From the NCBI GenBank assembly GCA_043803405.1, contig JAZDKB010000010.1, positions 1 to 64,000 on the forward strand: 64,000 nt of DNA. The letters are read 5' to 3'. Under the pieces are notes generated by a model. The model did no database searches, was not told the DNA's origin, and saw nothing but the letters and a program-made list of their open reading frames with translations. The stretch is from Spirochaetota bacterium (GTDB taxonomy: Bacteria; Spirochaetota; UBA4802; JAFGDQ01). The translations under genes were made by a program, and so were the position numbers. Below, one piece after another: positions 1 to 9,866 of this stretch (positions within the stretch are counted from its first letter, which is position 1; the number at the start of each line of letters is the position of its first letter).

Positions 1-83
1 TTTTCCCCTGATCTATTAATCTGCCCTCCAAATAAACACCGTATCTTTACCCTTATAGACAAAATATCTTCTTAGTCGGGCTT

Positions 84-142
84 CTTGAACATTGGATAGA
101 GTACGATCAAAAAACGATCGTCTCTATCCTTTATTGTTAGGC
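84..142 (-). other. Short, atypical attC-like site (59 bp) ending cassette 3
   Basis: Minus strand GCCTAAC (R'', contains the ORF stop TAA), then hairpin GGATAGAGACGATC / GATCGTACTCTATCC with one bulged base, then GTTCAAG (deviates from GTTRRRY). GCCTAAC is complementary to the GTTAGGC that starts this cassette (913-919). Confidence 0.55.
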
Positions 143-880
143 ACATTTGAAAATGATTAATAAAGCTGCACCGATAATTAGTAAAAAACCTGCTATAGCT
201 ATTAATATACGCAACCAAGTAGCATTGACTTTATTTATAATTACTTGCTTGATAAGATGATAACCAACCATGGTGATTGAGAATGCAAATACGAAATAAA
301 CCAGATTTAAAACAATTTTGTTTATATCCATAATTACTCCCTTACAAGAAAATTCCCTATATGTTAATAATGACCATATTGCATATAACATAACTGATAA
401 GTAAAGCCAATCTAAACCTAAAGAATGTGAAGCAGGTAGGAATGAAAGTTTAAATTTATTTAAAAATTTTGGTTTATCTTTAATTTCTTCTCTTAACTCT
501 TCTGTAAGTTTTTTCGGTAATTTTTCCTGTAATTCTCTCTTCCAAAAACGACAAAAAAGTGGCAATTCTTTTATTTCATCTTTTTCGTTATATCGAATTA
601 ATTTCCAATGTTCTTTTTCAATTTCTATAGCACGTTTCCCCATTTGTGTATATAGAGCTCTATTTCTTCGTTCTATAATATACATTGCAACAGTAATTGC
701 AATAATCAATAAGGCATTTTCTGGCGGCATTTCTTTTTGAACAATAAGACCAAGAGCTGCTAAATAAAAACCAAGTAAGGTAAAACGATGTGAGACAATT
801 GAATTGTGATAATCGATTAGAGAAGAATATTCGGTTCGAAGATTCTCAAAGTCCTGTTTATCTTTTTCGTCCTGATCCAT
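137..880 (-). CDS. Integron cassette ORF, hypothetical multi-TM membrane protein
   Basis: 247 aa with several hydrophobic helices, SD AGGAGG upstream, stop codon inside the R'' box, low GC. Confidence 0.75.
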   Translation of the reverse strand: MDQDEKDKQDFENLRTEYSSLIDYHNSIVSHRFTLLGFYLAALGLIVQKEMPPENALLIIAITVAMYIIERRNRALYTQMGKRAIEIEKEHWKLIRYNEKDEIKELPLFCRFWKRELQEKLPKKLTEELREEIKDKPKFLNKFKLSFLPASHSLGLDWLYLSVMLYAIWSLLTYREFSCKGVIMDINKIVLNLVYFVFAFSITMVGYHLIKQVIINKVNATWLRILIAIAGFLLIIGAALLIIFKCA

Positions 881-912
881 TACGCAACCTCCTTTCCTTG
901 TTTACAAATTCA

Positions 913-1043
913 GCCTAACTAACGGCTAAGCTGTACTGCGGGTACGAGCACCGACTTTGATAACTTATCAATTAGATTTTGACCGCCGACGTCCGACCGC
1001 CGCCAAATAGCCAGCAGTATCAGGCTTGAGCCGATTGTTAGAA
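913..1043 (-). other. attC site (131 bp)
   Basis: Minus strand TTCTAAC...GTTAGGC. Arms CGGCT-C-AAGC-C-TG-A-TACTGC / GCAGTA-CA-GCTT-AGCCG pair with extrahelical bases. Homologous to 1756-1885. Confidence 0.9.
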
Positions 1044-1073
1044 GTCTTGAATTCATATTATAGATGGAAAAAC

Positions 1074-1727
1074 CTATTTGCATTTTTCGATGATTTTTTG
1101 TGCTCTTTTTTGAGTTACCTTCTTTGAATATTCAATATATTCATTTGCGAATTCAGTAACAACTTTCTTTTGAGATGAGTTTAAGAATTCTACTATTTTT
1201 AAAAATCCTTCCAATATCCAATCTTGTTCATTCATTATTACATTATTTGTAGATTCTACTAATAGTTTATATGCTTTTTGTGCATTTTCTTTTGATATCG
1301 TTCCCCAATTTCCTAAATACATATCTATTGCACCAACTAAACATAATTGTCCATTTGTCTTTTCCAGAATATATTTTTTTGCATAAGGTAATGCTTTTTC
1401 AGCAATGGTCGGTTCTATTTTTGAGCAATAGCCAAGCGTCATGAAAATCATCCATTTTGTTTGGGGTTCTTCTGCTTCCAGTGCTGATAAAATTCTTTCC
1501 AGATATGGTGCAACTAAATCTGGTCTTTTTTCTGCGACACATTCTATAATTTTTGCAGCACCGGCTCTAATATGCTTAACTGTAGTTTTTTTTAGTTCAT
1601 AATTTACAAATGGTATAGTATCAGATAATAGTTTATTATTTCCATTTAGGATTTCTTTGGCAATTTCCTTTCCCAACGCACTTGATACTGTTCCTTTGTT
1701 ATTTGCTAACCTATCAAATAATGTCAT
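1074..1727 (-). CDS. Integron cassette ORF, alpha-helical (HEAT/ARM-repeat-like) hypothetical protein
   Basis: 217 aa single ORF between two attC sites; amphipathic helical repeats (RAGAAKIIECVAEKRPDLVAPYLERI). Confidence 0.75.
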   Translation of the reverse strand: MTLFDRLANNKGTVSSALGKEIAKEILNGNNKLLSDTIPFVNYELKKTTVKHIRAGAAKIIECVAEKRPDLVAPYLERILSALEAEEPQTKWMIFMTLGYCSKIEPTIAEKALPYAKKYILEKTNGQLCLVGAIDMYLGNWGTISKENAQKAYKLLVESTNNVIMNEQDWILEGFLKIVEFLNSSQKKVVTEFANEYIEYSKKVTQKRAQKIIEKCK

Positions 1728-1755
1728 GGTTCTTCCTTTTGCACCAAAAACGTCC

Positions 1756-1885
1756 TTCTAACTAAAATTTCAGCTGTGCTTGCGACTGCTGGCACCGACT
1801 TTAAAAGCCAACCGATTAGACTTTGACCTCTCAGCTCCGACCGTCGCCACGAGCGAGCAAGCATCCGCTGCAAATAATGTTAGAT
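1756..1885 (-). other. attC site (130 bp)
   Basis: Minus strand ATCTAAC...GTTAGAA. Shares blocks CTAACTAA, GCACCGACTTT, ATTAGAnTTTGACC and TCCGACCGnCGCCA (plus strand) with 913-1043. Confidence 0.9.
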
Positions 1886-1918
1886 TTTATTAATTTTCCC
1901 GTTATTAACTAATACGAT

Positions 1919-2515
1919 CTATTTGTTATTCCAATCCGAAGAAAAATTAAAATTGGTCACTATTCCATTTTGATCAAGACTAATTATTACGTCTTTACTA
2001 TAAAGTTTTCTGAATAACATTAACCCTTTATATTCGTTGTATACATACTTAAGAAGCTTTCTATCCTTCCCTGCAATAGGATAAATACTGATGCCTGAAG
2101 GCTTCCCTAGAATGTCGATTACTTCTTCCTCTTTAGTTTGTCCTTTCTTTATCTGGTTTAATTTGGTTTCATTAAAGTCAGTGTTATCCTCATTAAAAGA
2201 ACTCATAAATAAATAAGAGATCAGTACATCATTGTAAAAGCTAAATACAATCGTACGTCCTAGTATTTTACCATATAAGTTAGGGGTGCCTCCCGTATAT
2301 GAATATAAAAAATTTATTAAATTTTCATTATTGACCGTTGAAGGTTTTTCTTTATGTGGATTACCAAGCTTTTGCCGGATTTCTTGTATTGTAGTTTTAC
2401 CAAGTATTAAAGAATCATCTGCAGGACGCACAAAATTTGTTCCTGTGGTTACAGTTTTACAACTAAGGCAAATTACCATTGTAATTGCTAGGCTAGTTCC
2501 TTTTAATAATTTCAT
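1919..2515 (-). CDS. Integron cassette lipoprotein with two BamE/SmpA-like repeats
   Basis: SD AAGGAGG favours the ATG at 2515; signal peptide with lipobox-like CLSC; two GkTtxxEv..lGxP repeats. Confidence 0.65.
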   Translation of the reverse strand: MKLLKGTSLAITMVICLSCKTVTTGTNFVRPADDSLILGKTTIQEIRQKLGNPHKEKPSTVNNENLINFLYSYTGGTPNLYGKILGRTIVFSFYNDVLISYLFMSSFNEDNTDFNETKLNQIKKGQTKEEEVIDILGKPSGISIYPIAGKDRKLLKYVYNEYKGLMLFRKLYSKDVIISLDQNGIVTNFNFSSDWNNK

Positions 2516-2612
2516 CACCACAGCCTCCTTCATATATTTAATAGCTTTTACTAATCTCTATTCAATTAACTATTCATTTTATAATAGTGCATTTTTATAA
2601 TCTTCAGAGAAA

Positions 2613-3923
2613 CTAAATCTGTAAAGGCACCAGCGAAAATCCCAACGAAGCTGCCTTTTGTTTAAAATTTCTCAATACACGCTCTTTATACATCTTTTCG
2701 TAATAATCTGCACCTAAATCTTTATATGATTTGCCAGTCTTCATACACATGTAAAACAAACGTGCTATTTTATATGCTGTAGCTGTTATTGCTTTTGGCG
2801 CTCCCATTCTGCTTCGGAGTCTGCGATAAAAAGCTCCAATTGAACTATCACTTCTTCCCGCAGAATAAGCTGCAAGTCTGAATGCTGTCGCTGCTCTGTT
2901 CACTACCTTTTTCGATTTACTGCTTAATATCCGCCCGCCGCTTATTTTACTATTCGGCGATAATCCCAGCCATGATCCAAAATGTTTGTCTGTCGGCCAT
3001 TTATTCATATCAACTCCGACTTCCGATATTATTGTCTCTATGTTATTTATATCAAGACCATCTATTTCTGTAAGATCAACCTTGCATACTGCATGCAGTT
3101 TTGTTCTAATATTTTTCTTGTTGTTCTTATCATTATTCTCATCAGAATTATCATTCGTGTCGCCATTCATCTCATTGATTGTCTTTTCAATCATTTCTTC
3201 GCATTCGCTGATTTTTCGGCTTATGTATTCATACTGGTCAACTTCCTGGCGTAAGCAGAATAATTGTTCTTCCTGATAATTACCTTCGAGTGATTTGGCT
3301 ATTATGTCTGCACTATTTCTTATCCGGGAGCTCTTCAGTTGCGCCAGCTTTAACGGATCTCGTTCACCATCCAATATGCTTCGGATTATTCTCATCCCGG
3401 TAAATCCGGTTATATCTGATATTACTTTATGCAGCTGTATATTCATCTGTATCATGCATTTCTGCATTCTCTGAGTATGTGTTCCTCTGCTTCTTATCAG
3501 GTTTTCCCTGTGCCTTAAATATGTCCTTAATTTGCGTATTACAGGTTCCGGCTGATATGATCCCTGAAGTAAACCGTATGTATGAAGCTGCTGTATCCAT
3601 CGGCTGTCTACAATATCTGTCTTCCTCCCGGATACATTCTTTATGTGCCGGGCATTAACAAGTAATACTTCAAAACCATTCGCTTCCAGTATCTGAAAAA
3701 CAGGTATCCAGTATACTCCGGTGGATTCCATAGCTACTGTCTTTATTCCGCATTCCTTAAGCCACTTTGCCATTCCTTCTATGTCTGCTGTATAACATCC
3801 GAATTTCCGTATGGACTCATCTGTCCTGTCTTCCGGTACTGCTACATAATGAAATTCTGATCCGATATCTATCCCGGCAGCATCTAAATTTATCTGTTTC
3901 AGATCTCCTCTTTCTTTCTTCAT
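2613..3923 (-). CDS. IS110-family DEDD transposase/recombinase
   Basis: GIDIG, AMESTGVYW and KTDIVD give the DEDD tetrad; C-terminal Transposase_20-like GLSPNSKISGG with the conserved Ser. Confidence 0.95.
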   Translation of the reverse strand: MKKERGDLKQINLDAAGIDIGSEFHYVAVPEDRTDESIRKFGCYTADIEGMAKWLKECGIKTVAMESTGVYWIPVFQILEANGFEVLLVNARHIKNVSGRKTDIVDSRWIQQLHTYGLLQGSYQPEPVIRKLRTYLRHRENLIRSRGTHTQRMQKCMIQMNIQLHKVISDITGFTGMRIIRSILDGERDPLKLAQLKSSRIRNSADIIAKSLEGNYQEEQLFCLRQEVDQYEYISRKISECEEMIEKTINEMNGDTNDNSDENNDKNNKKNIRTKLHAVCKVDLTEIDGLDINNIETIISEVGVDMNKWPTDKHFGSWLGLSPNSKISGGRILSSKSKKVVNRAATAFRLAAYSAGRSDSSIGAFYRRLRSRMGAPKAITATAYKIARLFYMCMKTGKSYKDLGADYYEKMYKERVLRNFKQKAASLGFSLVPLQI

Positions 3924-3939
3924 ACTAAGACTTTACCTC

Positions 3940-4175
3940 GCCGATATTATTATTATGAAGTATTCTGATTCAGATTAAGGATAAATGAAATACTCTTCTG
4001 AACGGGATAGCATTATTGCTTCGCCAAATTTTTGTCCTTCTGTCTGAGACTATGCTAACTAACGGGTTCTTGACTCCATAGGTTTTTCAGTCATTTTCAG
4101 AATACTTCACACTTTTTTATCGGCCTGTCTCATCTACGTTTCTCTCATATTTGTCCGGCGGCCGCCGGTGGATTG
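3940..4175 (-). ncRNA. Putative IS110 bridge RNA
   Basis: 13-bp perfect inverted repeat (3956-3968 / 4097-4109) encloses two sub-domains, each with CCCGT followed by a 7-mer ending in AG (TAGTTAG; TCAGAAG). Confidence 0.65.
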
Positions 4176-4230
4176 CTAACACTGCCATATCGTTTATATA
4201 GACAAGTATAAATAACATTTACTTTCTCAA
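4176..4230 (-). other. Candidate attI-like site at the head of the cassette array
   Basis: GTTAG core with no upstream R''/hairpin partner; AT-rich; no further cassettes upstream. Confidence 0.4.
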
Positions 4231-4237
4231 TCAATAA

Positions 4238-4266
4238 TCAATAACTTTCATAATGATATTTGTCAA
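4238..4266 (-). promoter_or_regulatory. Possible cassette promoter (Pc-like)
   Basis: TTGACA-17 bp-TATTGA pointing into the array; weak -10. Confidence 0.3.
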
Positions 4267-4493
4267 TAAAAAACTATCTTCCATATTGGCATCGATTTTA
4301 ATTGTCTTTTGAGAATATCTAAGCAGACCGAGAACAAGAGGTTTAATTGATCTGGAATAGAGTCTTGGCACAACAACTATCAAATTAAAAAAAAAGAATT
4401 AAAAAATACTTATATTATTCCACATTAATTAACAATAATTCGTGATTTCAATTTCTAGATCTATTTGCTTTTCTATAATAATAAACCGGATTT

Positions 4494-5465
4494 TTATCCA
4501 GAATATTGCCCGAATATCTTACAAATTTTTTCTTCGTACCACACCCTGTACGGAAAGAAATCGAAAAAGCCGTTATGACCACCATAAGGCTGAACCAGGC
4601 GCTGTAAATATTTATTGTCTCTAAGGTTATAAACATCCTGAACCGGTATTATGGGATCATCCTCTGAGCTTATAATTGTAACAGGAATATTCAGGTTACT
4701 GAAAACATTATTTAGAAGCGTATATTCTGCATAATAAGCATTTACGGTTTTATATTCTGTATAAAGCGGAACAAAAGTATCCATCATTCCGGTCAAAGAA
4801 TTCATTTCATTTAAACCTTTAAAAGTGTATGTTTCCGGGAATAAAGCCTGTTTTTTAATTAACGATCTCTTCCATTTTTTAATAAAATATTTGCGAATAA
4901 CTGTAATTCTTTCAGTGCTTTCGGTTGATTTCATTGGATCAAGCACAGGGCTAATTGCCGCTACGTGGCGAAGATTTTTAATTTTTTCTTTCCGGTGCTT
5001 AAGCGCAATTCTGAGGGCAAAATTTCCGCCAAGCGAAAATCCGACTAGAAAGAACGGCCTTTTACTGTTCATCGCTGCGACGTTCTTTACTGCGTTAAAT
5101 GTTTCTTCGATCAATGTGGATTTGAAAAGACCTTTATTAAGATGATGTGAATCCCCGTGATCCCGGAGGTTCAGCCTGAAAATATCGAATTTATTTTTAT
5201 AAAGATATTTGGCAGTGCTTACGACGTACGAAGATCGCGAGCTTCCTTCCCATCCGTGAATAAACAAAACTGTTCCCCTGGATGAAGCTCCGGGCTGCTT
5301 TGAGTAATATCCCAGCAGACGTACGCCTTTGCCTCCGTCCACTATTGTTTCCTTCGCGCATCCGGACATGGGATTGCTGCCCATATTCCTCAGCTTTAAG
5401 CTGCCGAATACGCTTTGCAGAATCGGATTGCGAAAAAATATTTTGGGAACAAATTTGTCGTTCAT
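4494..5465 (-). CDS. YheT-like alpha/beta hydrolase
   Basis: HGWEGSS, nucleophile elbow GFSLGG, DDPII, GGHNG. Confidence 0.85.
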   Translation of the reverse strand: MNDKFVPKIFFRNPILQSVFGSLKLRNMGSNPMSGCAKETIVDGGKGVRLLGYYSKQPGASSRGTVLFIHGWEGSSRSSYVVSTAKYLYKNKFDIFRLNLRDHGDSHHLNKGLFKSTLIEETFNAVKNVAAMNSKRPFFLVGFSLGGNFALRIALKHRKEKIKNLRHVAAISPVLDPMKSTESTERITVIRKYFIKKWKRSLIKKQALFPETYTFKGLNEMNSLTGMMDTFVPLYTEYKTVNAYYAEYTLLNNVFSNLNIPVTIISSEDDPIIPVQDVYNLRDNKYLQRLVQPYGGHNGFFDFFPYRVWYEEKICKIFGQYSG

Positions 5466-5583
5466 AGAATTAATCTTTTATCTAAAAAATAAATGATATA
5501 CTTTAAGTTGTTTTATTTCCACAAGTTAAAAAATTAATTCAATAACTATTTTTTCTTAAAATTTACCTTTTACAAAATAAAAT

Positions 5584-5610
5584 AAAAAAAAGGCACGCAG
5601 TGCGTGCCTT
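5584..5610 (-). terminator. Rho-independent terminator
   Basis: AAGGCACGCA-G-TGCGTGCCTT hairpin followed by a T-run on the minus strand, just after the stop at 5643. Confidence 0.75.
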
Positions 5611-5642
5611 AATAAATTATAAAACAGATTTTTTTATTTTTC

Positions 5643-7283
5643 TTAGCTATTTAAAATTTTCTTTGCAGATTCATCCTGGGCGTCGGTAATATAAGTAATA
5701 CCGGTTTCTGCTTCAGTTTCTCTGTTTGCAGACCAAATATCGTTGCGTGAAATCTGATCGAGAGAGAATTTCCTTGCTCCTGCCATTAGCTGCTGTAAAC
5801 CTGCAGCAAGTTTGTCCGCCGCTGTCCATGCTGCGATCGCGCCGTAAGGAATGTTCTTCATTTCGGATGCGCCGACTTTCTTCTGAACATCGTAGTAACC
5901 GGCAAAGATTTCCTCAACTTTCTCACCGTTTTCAAGAACAGTATTCGGCAGTTTATCCCAGTTCCCATTTAAATTTGCTTTTCTGTCCGGATATAGAACG
6001 CCTTCAATGTTTGATCCAAGGAAGCCCGGTATCATAAGAGCTCTGCCCATGCAGACCAGCTTTGTGTAAGGAGCGCCGAGTGCGAGTGCCTTGAATATGT
6101 GGTCCTCTTTTGCAAGTCCGCCTGCGAATGAAAGATCTACAACATTATTGCCTTTTGCGGCAAGAATAGAAGCATATTCATAAGCTTTCGAATGCAGATA
6201 TATTGAAGGAACACCCCACGATCCCATCATGTTCCATGGGCTCATGCCAGTGCCGCCCCCTGAACCGTCGATTGTTAGCAGATCAAGTCCATTATCTGTT
6301 GCAAGTTTTATAGAAAGAGCAAGCGCCTCCATTCCATACGAGCCTGTCTTTAATGTAATTCTCTTATATCCGATCTTTCTTAAATATTTAACAGCTTTTG
6401 TAAACGCATCCATTACAGAATCCGCATTTGAAAGGTTGGTGTATCCTAATCTGCTATGACGGGCAAATGATTTAATAGCACCGTGTTTAAATGCTTCCTG
6501 AACTTCAGGTTTTGTAGGATCCGGATCAACAACATATCCTCTTTTCTTAAGAAACAGTGCATATTCAAGGTCATTAACCTGGATTTCTCCGCCGATATCC
6601 TTTGCTCCCTGTCCCCATTTTAATTCCATGACAACCTTATCGCCGTATTTATCTACGATGTATTCAGCTACGCCGTTTCGTGTGTCTTCCACGTTCATCT
6701 GAACAATAATCGCGCCATATCCGTCAAAATATCGAAGATACGTATCAATTCTGCGGTCCATTTCCGGAGCTTTACTTATTTTTCCGTTTTCGATTATTGC
6801 CTGTTTATCAATACCTGCAACGTTTTCTCCGATAACGATCGGGTAACCAACAAGCGCGGCTCCAATAGAGAATGATTCCCAGTATTTTGCTGCAATGAAA
6901 GTCGAACCAAGCGCCCCGGTCATAATGGGCATTTTAAATTTAGTTTTTTCTTTTCTGCCGAATTCACCTTCCAAATTTACATTCGGGAAGATACAGTCAT
7001 CGGGATCATTCGATAAGCCTTTTGCCAATCCATTCGAACCATATAAATATCCGTTAATTCTTAATGAGTTATATGATACTCCTACATGGGTTGTGTTTGC
7101 GCTTCCTGCCGTAATTGTTCCAAAATCCCGCGGATAAAGCAGTTTTCTGCCTTTCATGCACGAAACCCAGGTTTCACATTTTCCCTGGCAGTCAGCTCTG
7201 CATAATGTACACAGGCCGGACTCGCACGGATTGCCGCGATTTATAGTACCTAATGCATCGTTACTTTTTGCCCATTCAATCAT
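5643..7283 (-). CDS. FMN-binding glutamate synthase family protein (stand-alone FMN barrel, Cys-rich N-terminus)
   Basis: ELKWGQGAK, DGSGGGTG, FAGG..KALALGA; N-terminal CESGLCTLCRADCQGKC; SD GGAG supports the ATG at 7283. Confidence 0.85.
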   Translation of the reverse strand: MIEWAKSNDALGTINRGNPCESGLCTLCRADCQGKCETWVSCMKGRKLLYPRDFGTITAGSANTTHVGVSYNSLRINGYLYGSNGLAKGLSNDPDDCIFPNVNLEGEFGRKEKTKFKMPIMTGALGSTFIAAKYWESFSIGAALVGYPIVIGENVAGIDKQAIIENGKISKAPEMDRRIDTYLRYFDGYGAIIVQMNVEDTRNGVAEYIVDKYGDKVVMELKWGQGAKDIGGEIQVNDLEYALFLKKRGYVVDPDPTKPEVQEAFKHGAIKSFARHSRLGYTNLSNADSVMDAFTKAVKYLRKIGYKRITLKTGSYGMEALALSIKLATDNGLDLLTIDGSGGGTGMSPWNMMGSWGVPSIYLHSKAYEYASILAAKGNNVVDLSFAGGLAKEDHIFKALALGAPYTKLVCMGRALMIPGFLGSNIEGVLYPDRKANLNGNWDKLPNTVLENGEKVEEIFAGYYDVQKKVGASEMKNIPYGAIAAWTAADKLAAGLQQLMAGARKFSLDQISRNDIWSANRETEAETGITYITDAQDESAKKILNS

Positions 7284-7384
7284 TATAATTTCTCCTGTAA
7301 TTTTTATGATAATCATTAAAGTCAATTATGATTTAATGATTATTAAATCCCACTTTACTGACTTAAAACTATATTTAATTGACA

Positions 7385-7428
7385 TAAGTAATACTAAATT
7401 TATATCAAATTTGTTTAGTATTACTAAA
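7385..7428. promoter_or_regulatory. Tandem palindromic operator-like sites
   Basis: Perfect TTTAGTA-T-TACTAAA (7414-7428) and near-copy TAAGTA-A-TACTAAA (7385-7398), downstream of a minus-strand TTGACA (7443-7448). Confidence 0.45.
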
Positions 7429-7579
7429 TAATGTATCCTTAATGTCAACTTAAAAGAAACAATATTGATTTTCAGGCTTAAAAATTTAACATGATTGTAA
7501 CATTTAAATAATAGTAATGGATTTTTTATGCAGAGCTGCTATATTTAAAAGGGCTACAGATTTTCAATGGAGATTTATA

Positions 7580-8845
7580 CTATAACAACATATAAATAAA
7601 TTCACACTGGGAAATATCCTTATTATGCCATTTTTCAAAGAAAGATTTTTGAAGAAGAACTGACTCACCTTTATTAAGCTTATGCTCCTCTCCCTCAACT
7701 GTTAAATATAAAGAGCCATCTGTGATATATAAAAATTCATTTCCCTTGTGCAGCATTATGGGCCCCTCAACCATCTTATCTTCTTTAATGATAATAGAAT
7801 ATATTTTTATTGAAATATCATCATTATCAATCAATTCCGATACAATACAATTTTTATCCAGATTAAGCTGCTTACGTTTATAAATTTTAAAATTAATATT
7901 TTTATCAGCTGTATTTACATTTTCAACGAAATATTCCGGTGTTTTTCCAAAAATTGCGGATAATTGCACCAGCGTATTAAGAGAAGGAGATATTATTGAA
8001 TTTTCAATCTGCGAGACTGCTCCGGGAGTCAGCCCCAGAAGGGAAGCAAGTTCTGCCTGGGTTTTATTATTTTTTTTTCTTAAAATTTTAACCTTATCCC
8101 CGATTTTAAAAAAGTTGTCCGGTTTTTTACTTTGAAACTGGATATCGTGATTTGAAAATTTAAATTTATGCGGGGATGTGCTGAAAAAGCCGGATCTTCC
8201 TTCAAGTTTTTGAATTGAGAATTCAAAAAAATCTTCAGGTGTATTATACAATGAAAAGACGATTTGGGTTACATGTGAAACACCTGCGATAAATTCTTTT
8301 GAATGAGCGTTTTTCTCATAAATCCAGTATGCAAGGGTGTTAAGGTCGTAGAGCTTAGGGCATGTATAGGTAAAAAAATCAAGCACATTGCTTTCATTTT
8401 TCCAAAGTTCTGTCATGCCGGTAAGACTATCAAAGATATAAAAACTTCCTTCTTTATTATTTTCTTCGATTGTCTTAAGATTCTCAATAAATAACGAAAT
8501 ATCTTTTGGATTTTCCAATAAAATAAAATCTGAATTATTATGTTGTTTTTTTCCATTATAGAAATCCAGGAATACCTTATCGCTGTTTCCTTTCCCATTG
8601 GTAAATGCGTCTATGAGTATAACATGCTGTTTTTCAAACAATTCCGCATATTTTTTACAGATTGTATTGGGCGAGAAATTAAAATTTATATAAATTACAT
8701 TCTGGTTAAAGTTGTTCTTTTTGTTAAAAAAATTTTTTATAAAATTATCTATTGATATACCGTCGGATATTTGCCAAACTACATTATCTCCGAGTTTTAA
8801 GCCACCTGTGATTTTGTCCAGATATGTTATGCCTGTGCTTATCAT
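7580..8845 (-). CDS. Regulator: degenerate RecA/KaiC-like domain + XRE HTH + cupin
   Basis: STGITYLDKITGGL and IFDSLT but no Walker A GKT; TQAELASLLGLTPGAVSQIEN HTH; HKGNEFLYITDG cupin. Confidence 0.8.
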   Translation of the reverse strand: MISTGITYLDKITGGLKLGDNVVWQISDGISIDNFIKNFFNKKNNFNQNVIYINFNFSPNTICKKYAELFEKQHVILIDAFTNGKGNSDKVFLDFYNGKKQHNNSDFILLENPKDISLFIENLKTIEENNKEGSFYIFDSLTGMTELWKNESNVLDFFTYTCPKLYDLNTLAYWIYEKNAHSKEFIAGVSHVTQIVFSLYNTPEDFFEFSIQKLEGRSGFFSTSPHKFKFSNHDIQFQSKKPDNFFKIGDKVKILRKKNNKTQAELASLLGLTPGAVSQIENSIISPSLNTLVQLSAIFGKTPEYFVENVNTADKNINFKIYKRKQLNLDKNCIVSELIDNDDISIKIYSIIIKEDKMVEGPIMLHKGNEFLYITDGSLYLTVEGEEHKLNKGESVLLQKSFFEKWHNKDISQCEFIYMLL

Positions 8846-8876
8846 AATTATACTCCCGTGGCCATTCTACTTGCTT

Positions 8877-9866
8877 TTAAATGAATAATTCATTATAGCG
8901 GATCATTTTATTAAAATCATGCAATGATTTCAACGCAGTATTTTCCGTTGGAATGCCCATCTCTTCAACTGCCGCAATCGGATTCAATCCTCCCGCGACT
9001 ATCATCCCTACTCTGCCTTCCGAAACAGGAATACCCAGCAGTGATTGTCCCGGCTTCCCTATCATTAAAATACCGTCTAACCCGATTTCACTCATTCTTT
9101 TTTTTATTTTTAAAGCTTTGTTCAGTGCTATTGACGGAAATTCCCGAAAGCCGGCGCCTATCCTCCCGTTGCCTGTGTTTACAACATCTCTGACGCTTGT
9201 CATGCGACCTTTTATAAATATTTCTAAAGGATCAATGGATGTACCATCATAATTTATAATATCAATAAATCGAAGGGGCTCTCCTTTTGAAATTTCCAGG
9301 ACACCACCAAATCTTGATGTTGTATAAATACCTTTGTTAAAAAATATTCCGTTTATCGTAACGCTGCAAACAGTCCCAATAGTTACTTTCCCGGGACTGG
9401 ATTTTAAATCAAGCGGAGTATTTTCTTCATAATTTACCGTCACATATTTTCCCATCCCCAGGCCTTTATCAAAGACGGACTTAATCTCGGAATAAGCTTC
9501 TTTAAAATTTTCTAACGGTAAAGTTGTATGGTTTAGTATAATTCTTCCGCTTAATTTTTGAATGGAAAAATTCATTTGATATGTAAGTGTATCAATTTTT
9601 GAAGCTATAAAGCCTACCTTTTCAAAAGTAAATGCCGAGTTTAATTCATTAATCCCTTTTTCGGTTACAATGCGTCCTTTTTTTCCAAGGTTCTTTGTTA
9701 AGCCATCCTGATCCATTTTTTGAAGATAATAACGTATTGTGCGTTCGCTTAGATCATGGCCCAATTCCTGCAATTTAAGAGAAATTAACGAACTGCCAAC
9801 AGGCTGACTATGATCATTCAGTATCTGGAGAATTGAGACGATTTTTCTTTCTGAAATTTTGCTCAT
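8877..9866 (-). CDS. nrpR: NrpR-family nitrogen repressor (wHTH + single NRD/DUF128 domain)
   Basis: SERTIRYYLQKMD wHTH; TVCSVTINGI, GTSIDPLEIF and GGLNPIAA motifs. Confidence 0.85.
   Translation of the reverse strand: MSKISERKIVSILQILNDHSQPVGSSLISLKLQELGHDLSERTIRYYLQKMDQDGLTKNLGKKGRIVTEKGINELNSAFTFEKVGFIASKIDTLTYQMNFSIQKLSGRIILNHTTLPLENFKEAYSEIKSVFDKGLGMGKYVTVNYEENTPLDLKSSPGKVTIGTVCSVTINGIFFNKGIYTTSRFGGVLEISKGEPLRFIDIINYDGTSIDPLEIFIKGRMTSVRDVVNTGNGRIGAGFREFPSIALNKALKIKKRMSEIGLDGILMIGKPGQSLLGIPVSEGRVGMIVAGGLNPIAAVEEMGIPTENTALKSLHDFNKMIRYNELFI

Follow-up and report, generated by a model that had tools for sequence, protein, structure and literature searches.

The window, a stretch of 64,000 nucleotides from a Spirochaetota bacterium (contig JAZDKB010000010.1), carries an intact insertion sequence (IS) of the IS110 group at the head of an integron cassette array, both on the minus strand. 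The element and the two attC sites of the window are listed below, where L numbers designate sequence loci.

907 to 1052, minus strand: attC-A, with R' flank TAGTTAG (921-915), then GCTGAA
1750 to 1894, minus strand: attC-B, with R' flank TAGTTAG (1764-1758), then AAGGAC
2602 to 4175, minus strand: IS110-group insertion sequence, 1574 bp; other copies in the same genome start or stop aligning here, and the guide-junction matches fix the ends by homology
4175 to 2602, minus strand: termini of the element, from the RD start at 4175 to the AG core of the right end at 2603-2602
2602 to 2608, minus strand: left donor and core at the right end, TCTGA-AG, with T here and A in other copies
2613 to 3923, minus strand: recombinase gene, 436 aa, matching PF01548, PF02371, and the IS621 transposase 8wt6 (E 2.3e-5)
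3924 to 4175, minus strand: left non-coding end, 252 nt, predicted to encode the bridge RNA
4155 to 4168, minus strand: subterminal hairpin CCGGCGGCCGCCGG; the stem is kept and the loops differ in L103-L106, L090, and L091
4176 to 4182, minus strand: GTGTT-AG, the left target and core of the window copy, which matches the guide at 5/7; the flanks of three copies diverge upstream of GTTAG

The recombinase ORF (minus strand, 3923-2613) lies inside the element and contains PF01548 at 1.9e-22 (residues 16-160) and PF02371 at 3.1e-8 (residues 284-366). Its only relative with a solved structure is the IS621 transposase, a distant one, and in the alignment to 8wt6 identical residues face D19 (GID), E66, D103/D106 (KTDxVD), and S328 (SG); these are putative counterparts of D11/E60/D102/D105/S241, with the second domain aligning weakly (4.9 bits). 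The protein is accordingly predicted to combine an N-terminal DEDD (RuvC-like) domain with a C-terminal Tnp domain carrying a catalytic serine. The gene is preceded by 252 nt of non-coding sequence and followed by 11 nt after the stop codon, and because the long non-coding end lies upstream and the short one downstream, the element has the layout of the IS110 group and not that of IS1111, in which the two ends are reversed (PMC11208160). Long terminal inverted repeats are absent and an AG core stands on both sides (4177-4176 and 2603-2602), as is characteristic of the IS110 group.

Further copies interrupt the assembly of the same genome (54 contigs) as left ends (L003 and L005) or right ends (L002, L004, and L006), and at least four copies stop at identical bases. 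Their junctions align as xxxxGTT-AG followed by CAATCC on the left and as a terminal TCAGA-AG on the right, so that the element is taken to run from 4175 to 2602 with an AG core on each side. The right end TCTGAAG of the window copy (2608-2602) is a private change, since TCAGAAG is found in three of four same-genome right ends, in all four close metagenome relatives, and in seven of eight right ends of the lineage overall. A search of a plasmid collection returned only genes named "IS110 family transposase", at no more than 53% identity. The hairpin CCGGCGGCCGCCGG (4155-4168, minus strand) is a perfect 14-nt palindrome 8 bases inside the left terminus, and the corresponding hairpin of relatives differs in sequence. 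In a genome of the same genus (G003, contig C73; L007 1331-1480), the last 72 bases of an older copy contain an insertion of the element, which creates a tandem right end; the inner site (GTATTG-AG-AAATTT) matches the guide described below at 5/7. Two right-end-only relics of a related element, each ~150 nt long and 1.3 kb apart (L093 1501-1649 and 2818-2967; G004 contig C5), are cut at an identical internal point, and one of them adjoins TCTTTTCATATTTTCGAGAG, the same type of site as the L004 flank. A junction promoter formed by joining the right end to the left end was considered and rejected, as no acceptable -10 for its -35-like TTTACA is found where the left end begins. Across the right-hand junction of the window copy (2597-2625, minus strand), the same -35-like TTTACA is followed after a 17-nt spacer by GATTAT (9/12 consensus positions), and this promoter-like site faces a BamE-like cassette gene. 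GATAAA (4121-4116), 6 nt before P1, is the sole conserved -10-like box and is not taken as evidence of a promoter.

The cassettes of the window lie on the minus strand, and their array has no adjacent integrase and begins just after an alpha/beta hydrolase gene. attC-A (TTCTAAC...GTTAGGC) and attC-B (ATCTAAC...GTTAGAA) both terminate in ...TTAGTTAG, followed by the remaining R' box, and belong to a family for which nhmmer finds 12 sites in the genome, with R' flanks that include TAGTTAG (four sites), TCGTTAG (one), and TCGTTAA (two). The genome also encodes an integron integrase (TIGR02249, 453 bits, C9:269679-270623). Judged by the inverted repeat RYYYAAC...GTTRRRY, the cassette ORF, and the integrase in the genome, the target sites discussed below would be genuine attC sites. 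The integrase lies on another contig (C9) and is co-oriented with cassettes of its own, and plus-strand attC sites reach the contig end at 282264 (also C9:279698-281515). The string GGCAGTGTT, just outside the left end of the element (4178-4186), recurs ~290 bases upstream of this integrase (L098, about 1149-1160), which may be chance or an attI-like relation. With both strands counted, the window contains TAGTTAG only three times (at 4061, 1764, and 921) against ~12.5 expected from base composition, and all three copies are on the minus strand, at the 3' ends of the two attC sites and within the left end of the element. Genome-wide (G000), TAGTTAG has the lowest count among the 210 7-mers of its composition, with 83 copies (4 of them in attC sites) against a median of 461 as raw counts, and other words containing GTTAG are also among the lowest; this could reflect avoidance of integrase or IS target sequences or simply avoidance of TAG/CTA.

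The left end of the element is predicted to fold into a structured RNA with the parts listed below in the sense of the element.

4097 to 4109, minus strand: outer stem P1, 5' arm UGAAGUAUUCUGA, with compensatory changes across the clade
4088 to 4092, minus strand: target-loop closing helix, 5' strand GACUG (GACCG in the clade), consensus pairs 28-32/73-77
4080 to 4087, minus strand: candidate right target guide AAAAAC + CU, placed by the clade register; would pair with top strand AG-GTTTTT, which the right flanks of L105 and L002 fit
4062 to 4079, minus strand: target-loop capped hairpin with the conserved CCCGU at its end
4055 to 4061, minus strand: left target guide UAGUU + AG core, equal to the R' flank of attC-A and attC-B
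4053 to 4054, minus strand: CA, a two-base continuation of the guide equal to the first two bases of the element
4048 to 4052, minus strand: target-loop closing helix, 3' strand UAGUC (UGGUY in the clade)
4035 to 4047, minus strand: stem P2, 5' strand (UCAGA..AAGGA), enclosing the donor loop; pairs 79-84/169-175, changed on both sides in up to 26 of 50 sequences
4007 to 4034, minus strand: donor loop 5' strand (4034-4022), the place of the right donor guide in the clade, and capped hairpin (4021-4007)
3995 to 4006, minus strand: CCCGU and left donor guide UCAGA + AG, equal to the right end TCAGAAG of other copies
3970 to 3981, minus strand: stem P2, 3' strand (UCCUU..UCUGA)
3956 to 3968, minus strand: outer stem P1, 3' arm UCAGAAUACUUCA, from the fold and the clade consensus

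The initial annotation had proposed a bridge RNA with separate target and donor loops within a 13-bp stem, and the stem, the two CCCGT loops, and the strings that it named are all present where it had put them. The arms of the stem read TGAAGTATTCTGA (3956-3968) and TCAGAATACTTCA (4097-4109) on the plus strand; in the sense of the element, the 5' arm spans 4109-4097 and the 3' arm 3968-3956, and they enclose two loops in which CCCGT (4066-4062 and 4006-4002, minus strand) is followed directly by TAGTTAG (4061-4055) and TCAGAAG (4001-3995), respectively, both ending in AG. TAGTTAG in the first loop is, as had been noticed, identical to the ends of both attC sites, and the 11-mer CCGTTAGTTAG matches 915-925 in reverse complement. 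Folding of the 257-nt left end gives -67.7 kcal/mol, compared with -48.4 +/- 4.3 for shuffled sequences (z -4.46; 0/200 shuffles as good). An Rfam scan of positions 1-9000 at E<=1 gave no match in this region and two elsewhere (E 0.2 and 0.26), far below the cut-offs. In the metatranscriptome run X4, contigs of 100% identity cover 3751-4180 only, which comprises the left end plus 170 bases at the start of the gene, possibly as DNA carry-over; a coverage gap over 2613-3750 and three small "joints" in the same run were not counted as findings. One X4 contig continues for 106 bases beyond the element in an attC-like flank, as transcription reading through a cassette array would produce, with carry-over also possible.

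Scans with the recombinase protein yielded 79 genome loci and 80 metagenome loci, of which 79 and 77 were tabulated after L128, L131, and L135, whose matches were cut short, had been dropped. Two CCCG[TA] motifs 50-90 nt apart occur upstream of the gene in 81 of the 156 homologous loci (34/79 genome and 47/77 metagenome), and the guide statistics rest on loci with this motif pair, leaving out the 75/156 loci without an exact pair. A consensus fold computed from 50 sequences contains 31 pairs, of which 19 show double compensatory changes, and consists of the outer stem, the target-loop closing helix with its capped hairpin, the second stem, and the donor-loop capped hairpin. Together with PF01548, PF02371, and the upstream position of the non-coding end, these results bear out the two-loop bridge RNA of the earlier proposal. 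Behind the first motif stands a hypervariable 7-mer (40 distinct sequences, 38 ending in AG). Within the 70 bases where the left boundary is expected, it matches the DNA outside the left end at 7/7 in 55 of 68 non-redundant loci, at 6/7 in 8, and at less in 5, compared with 7/7 in 0.6% of mismatched guide-locus pairs (n=4434). Similarly, the 7-mer after the second motif is identical to the right end just past the gene in 55 of 66 non-redundant loci, compared with 0.6% in the controls (n=3946). Because they are identical to their respective junctions, the first 7-mer is assigned as left target guide (UAGUUAG) and the second as left donor guide (UCAGAAG), both with an AG core. The same roles had been given to loop 1 and loop 2 before the survey, with covariation of the 7-mers with target and donor across homologues named as a test, and that covariation is what the survey finds; the 6/7 match of loop 2 to the right end of the window copy, also noted earlier, is 7/7 in the other copies.

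In the convention used for IS621, left guides pair with the bottom strand (as described in PMC11208160), and this pairing gives them the sequence of the top strand together with the core. In 32 of 48 loci, the window (CA) included, the left target guide is followed by two bases identical to the first two of the element, compared with 13.5% in controls, and a soil subclade breaks this rule. The continuation may be a bottom-strand counterpart of the handshake guides of IS621, and handshake guides of the IS621 type beside the right guides were looked for and not seen. For the right half of the target, the register was anchored on the conserved UGGNG. A near-invariant C stands opposite the core G in 43 of 47 loci, and the bases 5' of this C are complementary to RT+1..+4 in 49-57% of the 47 loci, compared with 26-29% in controls, and other registers show no excess. 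In the window, AAAAACCU lies at the register of the clade, which gives AAAAAC-CU as right target guide and predicts AG-GTTTTT. The proposal that AAAAACCT (4087-4080) is a second target guide agrees with this register in position, and good agreement with AG-GTTTTT is found in 2 of 10 right flanks of the lineage (L105, 5/5, and L002, GTTTTA...), and the other eight fit partly or poorly (ATTATA, TTTTTC, AAGGTT, AAGGTA twice, AAATTT, AAGCGG, and GCCAGG). AAAAACCU is thus the more weakly assigned of the target guides, a candidate placed by its register. A right donor guide complementary to the left terminus CAATCC was not found by eye or by a column-by-position covariation scan, in agreement with the initial annotation, which could not identify one either. 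The homologous position (4034-4025) offers no more than GGA for pairing with the TCC of CAATCC, and it does not covary among L103-L106.

The model that these observations suggest is a bridge RNA of ~154 nt read from 4109 to 3956 on the minus strand, in which the outer stem P1 would enclose the loop that binds the target and the donor-binding loop would lie behind the second stem P2. Each loop would present a capped hairpin ending in CCCGU and then a left guide. [quoted passage not shown] By analogy with the work on IS621, we infer that the RNA is transcribed and associates with the recombinase, that each guide pairs with the strand given here, and that the element passes through a circular intermediate. 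The full specified target, TAGTT-AG-GTTTTT, would contain GTTAGGT, an R' core box of the form GTTRRRY. The left half of this target equals the conserved L'/R' end of an attC family, and the expected landing point of the element is therefore the 3' end of attC, 2-4 bases beyond the crossover made by the integrase (between G and TT), always with its gene in the cassette direction.

The insertion sites of close relatives agree with this expectation. The left flank of L103 (95% amino acid identity) reads ...AAAGTCGGCAT..N..CCTTAGTTAG up to the boundary and can be aligned with attC-A and attC-B, and its right flank AAGGTAC resembles the bases after attC-B. L104 (89%) adjoins an imperfect hairpin of ~125 nt that runs from TTCTAAC to GTCGTTAG at the boundary (z -2.65) and in which CTAAC pairs with the GTTAG abutting the element. 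In such relatives the element abuts the 3' (R') attC end, and its gene runs in the direction of the cassettes. L104 and L105 carry the guide UCGUUAG and the flank TCGTTAG, a natural compensatory change with respect to the relatives with TAGTTAG. In addition, all four left-junction contig ends from three metagenome runs (two in X2 and one each in X3 and X4) read TAGTTAG, and two of them contain the CAGCT motif of the family. By these alignments, close relatives are placed exactly at the R' end of the attC family of the window, and the proposal of the initial annotation that the guide reads the attC R' box is upheld through L103, L104, L105, and the four contig ends.

The best explanation of the locus is that the left end of an intact IS110-group IS encodes a bridge RNA whose guides specify the R' end of attC, and this reading is given a probability of roughly 80%. 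It is carried by computational observations, namely the identity and covariation of guides and junctions, the compensatory stems, and the close relatives at attC R' ends. Weighing against it are the imperfect matches of the window copy to its own guides, the poor fit of most right flanks, the failure to find a right donor guide, the guide order reversed with respect to IS621, and the lack of an Rfam match. The alternative that fares best accepts the bridge RNA and holds that attC is not its evolved target; any AT-rich site resembling TAGTT-AG-(G)TTTTT would serve, and attC would be hit incidentally through TAGTTAG. Several insertions in the genome of the window speak for it. None of the 12 family attC sites in the assembly is occupied, and the three left flanks seen in the genome (the window copy, L003, and L005) lack family attC motifs, so that the copies of this genome lie outside family attC sites. 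The left flank of the window copy, GTGTTAG (4182-4176), matches the guide at only 5/7, as had been pointed out at the outset, and the match to its own donor is 6/7. Excision of this copy would leave GTGTT-AG-ATTATA, in which GTTAGAT fits GTTRRRY; the 313 nt upstream of the element (4181-4493) contain no GTTRRRY, no family motif, and no recognisable attC. A search for the empty site with the left flank in four related genomes found the hydrolase gene with a different downstream region and no pre-insertion sequence. The best two-sided match to the specified target (TAGTTAG + TTTTTC) is the L005/L004 site, a non-attC palindrome, and L106 (70% identity), a related element, has a quite different guide and a non-attC target. 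On both sides of the L005/L004 insertion point (L005 140-260 and the last 260 bases of L004) lies a 27-bp perfect inverted repeat (..AAATTTTGTAATATATTCCGATTTAT..), and this site appears to be a second, structured type of target distinct from attC. attC is therefore not the sole target of the lineage. Against an incidental role of attC stand five independent places with attC-type left flanks (L103, L104, L105, X4, and X2), the guide variants of the lineage, TAGTTAG and TCGTTAG, which are the two common R' flank variants of the attC family, and the genome-wide rarity of TAGTTAG outside these sites given above. Attraction to AT-rich sites with attC as a bystander is on this balance unlikely.

Much less probable is the explanation in which the internal copies of the junctions work as DNA instead of guiding as RNA, for instance by binding protein or serving in synapsis. 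Sequence covariation alone cannot separate pairing by RNA from pairing by DNA, and the contigs of the RNA run X4 are a weak hint of a transcript; the guides are embedded in a structure with the compensatory base-pair changes typical of RNA, however, and in the same protein family an RNA has been co-purified with the recombinase, reprogrammed, and seen by cryo-EM, according to the accounts in PMC11208160, PMC11208158, and PMC11187229. An ordinary structured 5' leader of the transposase gene with chance 7-mer matches, for which it could be said that short words match randomly in AT-rich DNA, is refuted by exact matches at the expected place in 55/68 and 55/66 loci compared with 0.6% of controls.

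The bridge RNA reading can be set beside the systems already described. As in IS621, going by the descriptions in PMC11208160 (Durrant et al., 2024) and PMC11208158 (Hiraizumi et al., 2024), the long left end, which precedes the gene of a DEDD/Tnp recombinase, would encode the RNA, and this RNA would have one target loop and one donor loop. The left guides are in top-strand sense including the core, the candidate right target guide would pair with the top strand, and a copy of the core stands at each end of the element. The core is AG here and CT in IS621, and the left guides consist of 5+2 nt, compared with a 9-nt LTG (A50-U58) and an 8-nt LDG (A123-C130) in the published IS621 RNA. The loops of IS621 are arranged in series, each in the order stem, left guide, stem loop, and right guide (as presented in PMC11208158), whereas in the window element the capped hairpin has the putative right guide on its 5' side and the left guide on its 3' side, which looks like a permuted version of the IS621 loop, and the donor loop is nested inside a common outer stem, behind P2. 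As bridge RNA structures are reported to be diverse (PMC11208160), this difference in order bears on the likeness to IS621 and not on the status as a bridge RNA. The handshake guides described for IS621 flank the right guides, whereas here it is the two bases after the left target guide that match the first bases of the element. For the seekRNA of IS1111 elements, the stretch matching the top strand is described as 5' of the stretch matching the bottom strand, the same order as here (PMC11187229).

RNA-guided targeting of attC is itself known from the IS1111 sister group, for example, in ISKpn4, ISPst6, and ISPa25, for which the RNA is reported downstream of the gene (PMC11187229). The IS1111-attC group (ISPa21, ISPst6, ISKpn4, and ISPa25; Siddiquee et al., 2024) is, from what is described there, likewise composed of RNA-guided DEDD recombinases that insert at a fixed attC position, with the RNA in the long right end; the window element has a right end of 11 nt and its RNA upstream. 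Insertions of the IS1111-attC group are described as lying near the 5' end of attC and antisense to the cassettes (PMC3001079), whereas the lineage of the window uses the 3' (R') end in the sense orientation. Since the place of the RNA, the end of attC, and the orientation all differ from those of the IS1111-attC group, the lineage is regarded as a second, separate attC specialist. Group IIC-attC introns are also RNA-guided attC specialists; in the account of PMC3001079, they are retroelements with another mechanism and insert antisense near the 5' end of attC. In the "sequence-structure dual match" reported for the IS110 element ISPpu10 (bioRxiv 10.64898/2026.03.19.712850), a stem-loop of the target lies just 5' of the paired stretch, and the attC hairpin occupies the same place relative to TAGTT-AG, which by analogy makes it a candidate for a role in recognition. 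In the openly accessible articles searched, main texts only, no description was found of an IS110-group element with a left-end RNA that targets attC. The mechanism is thus a known one, which the window element leaves unchanged, and a lineage that uses the R' end of attC seems to be undescribed.

A further interpretation, put forward tentatively as a possible and still doubtful one, is that a lineage of IS110 proper became a parasite of integrons on its own, separately from the IS1111-attC group, and enters attC at the opposite end. The left target guide would follow the R' flank variants (TAGTTAG and TCGTTAG) of one attC family, and as recognition would lean on the conserved left half, almost any cassette junction would be open to insertion; if true, this would be a natural case of "half-match" targeting. 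Because the element would land 2-4 bases past the crossover and leave GTTAG in place, it would become the 5' part of the downstream cassette and, if this is true, could travel via the integron integrase and be transcribed by read-through of the array. In any case, the element is a clean example from nature: the sequence itself reveals both left guides of a bridge RNA, and close relatives differ by a natural compensatory change of guide and target. The loop layout, with the right guide 5' of the left guide, and the apparently weak demand on the right half may be useful for the design of bridge recombinases. attC would be exploited by a second RNA-guided lineage from the opposite end and in the opposite orientation to the IS1111-attC elements, which would matter for the break-up, silencing, or mobilisation of cassette arrays.
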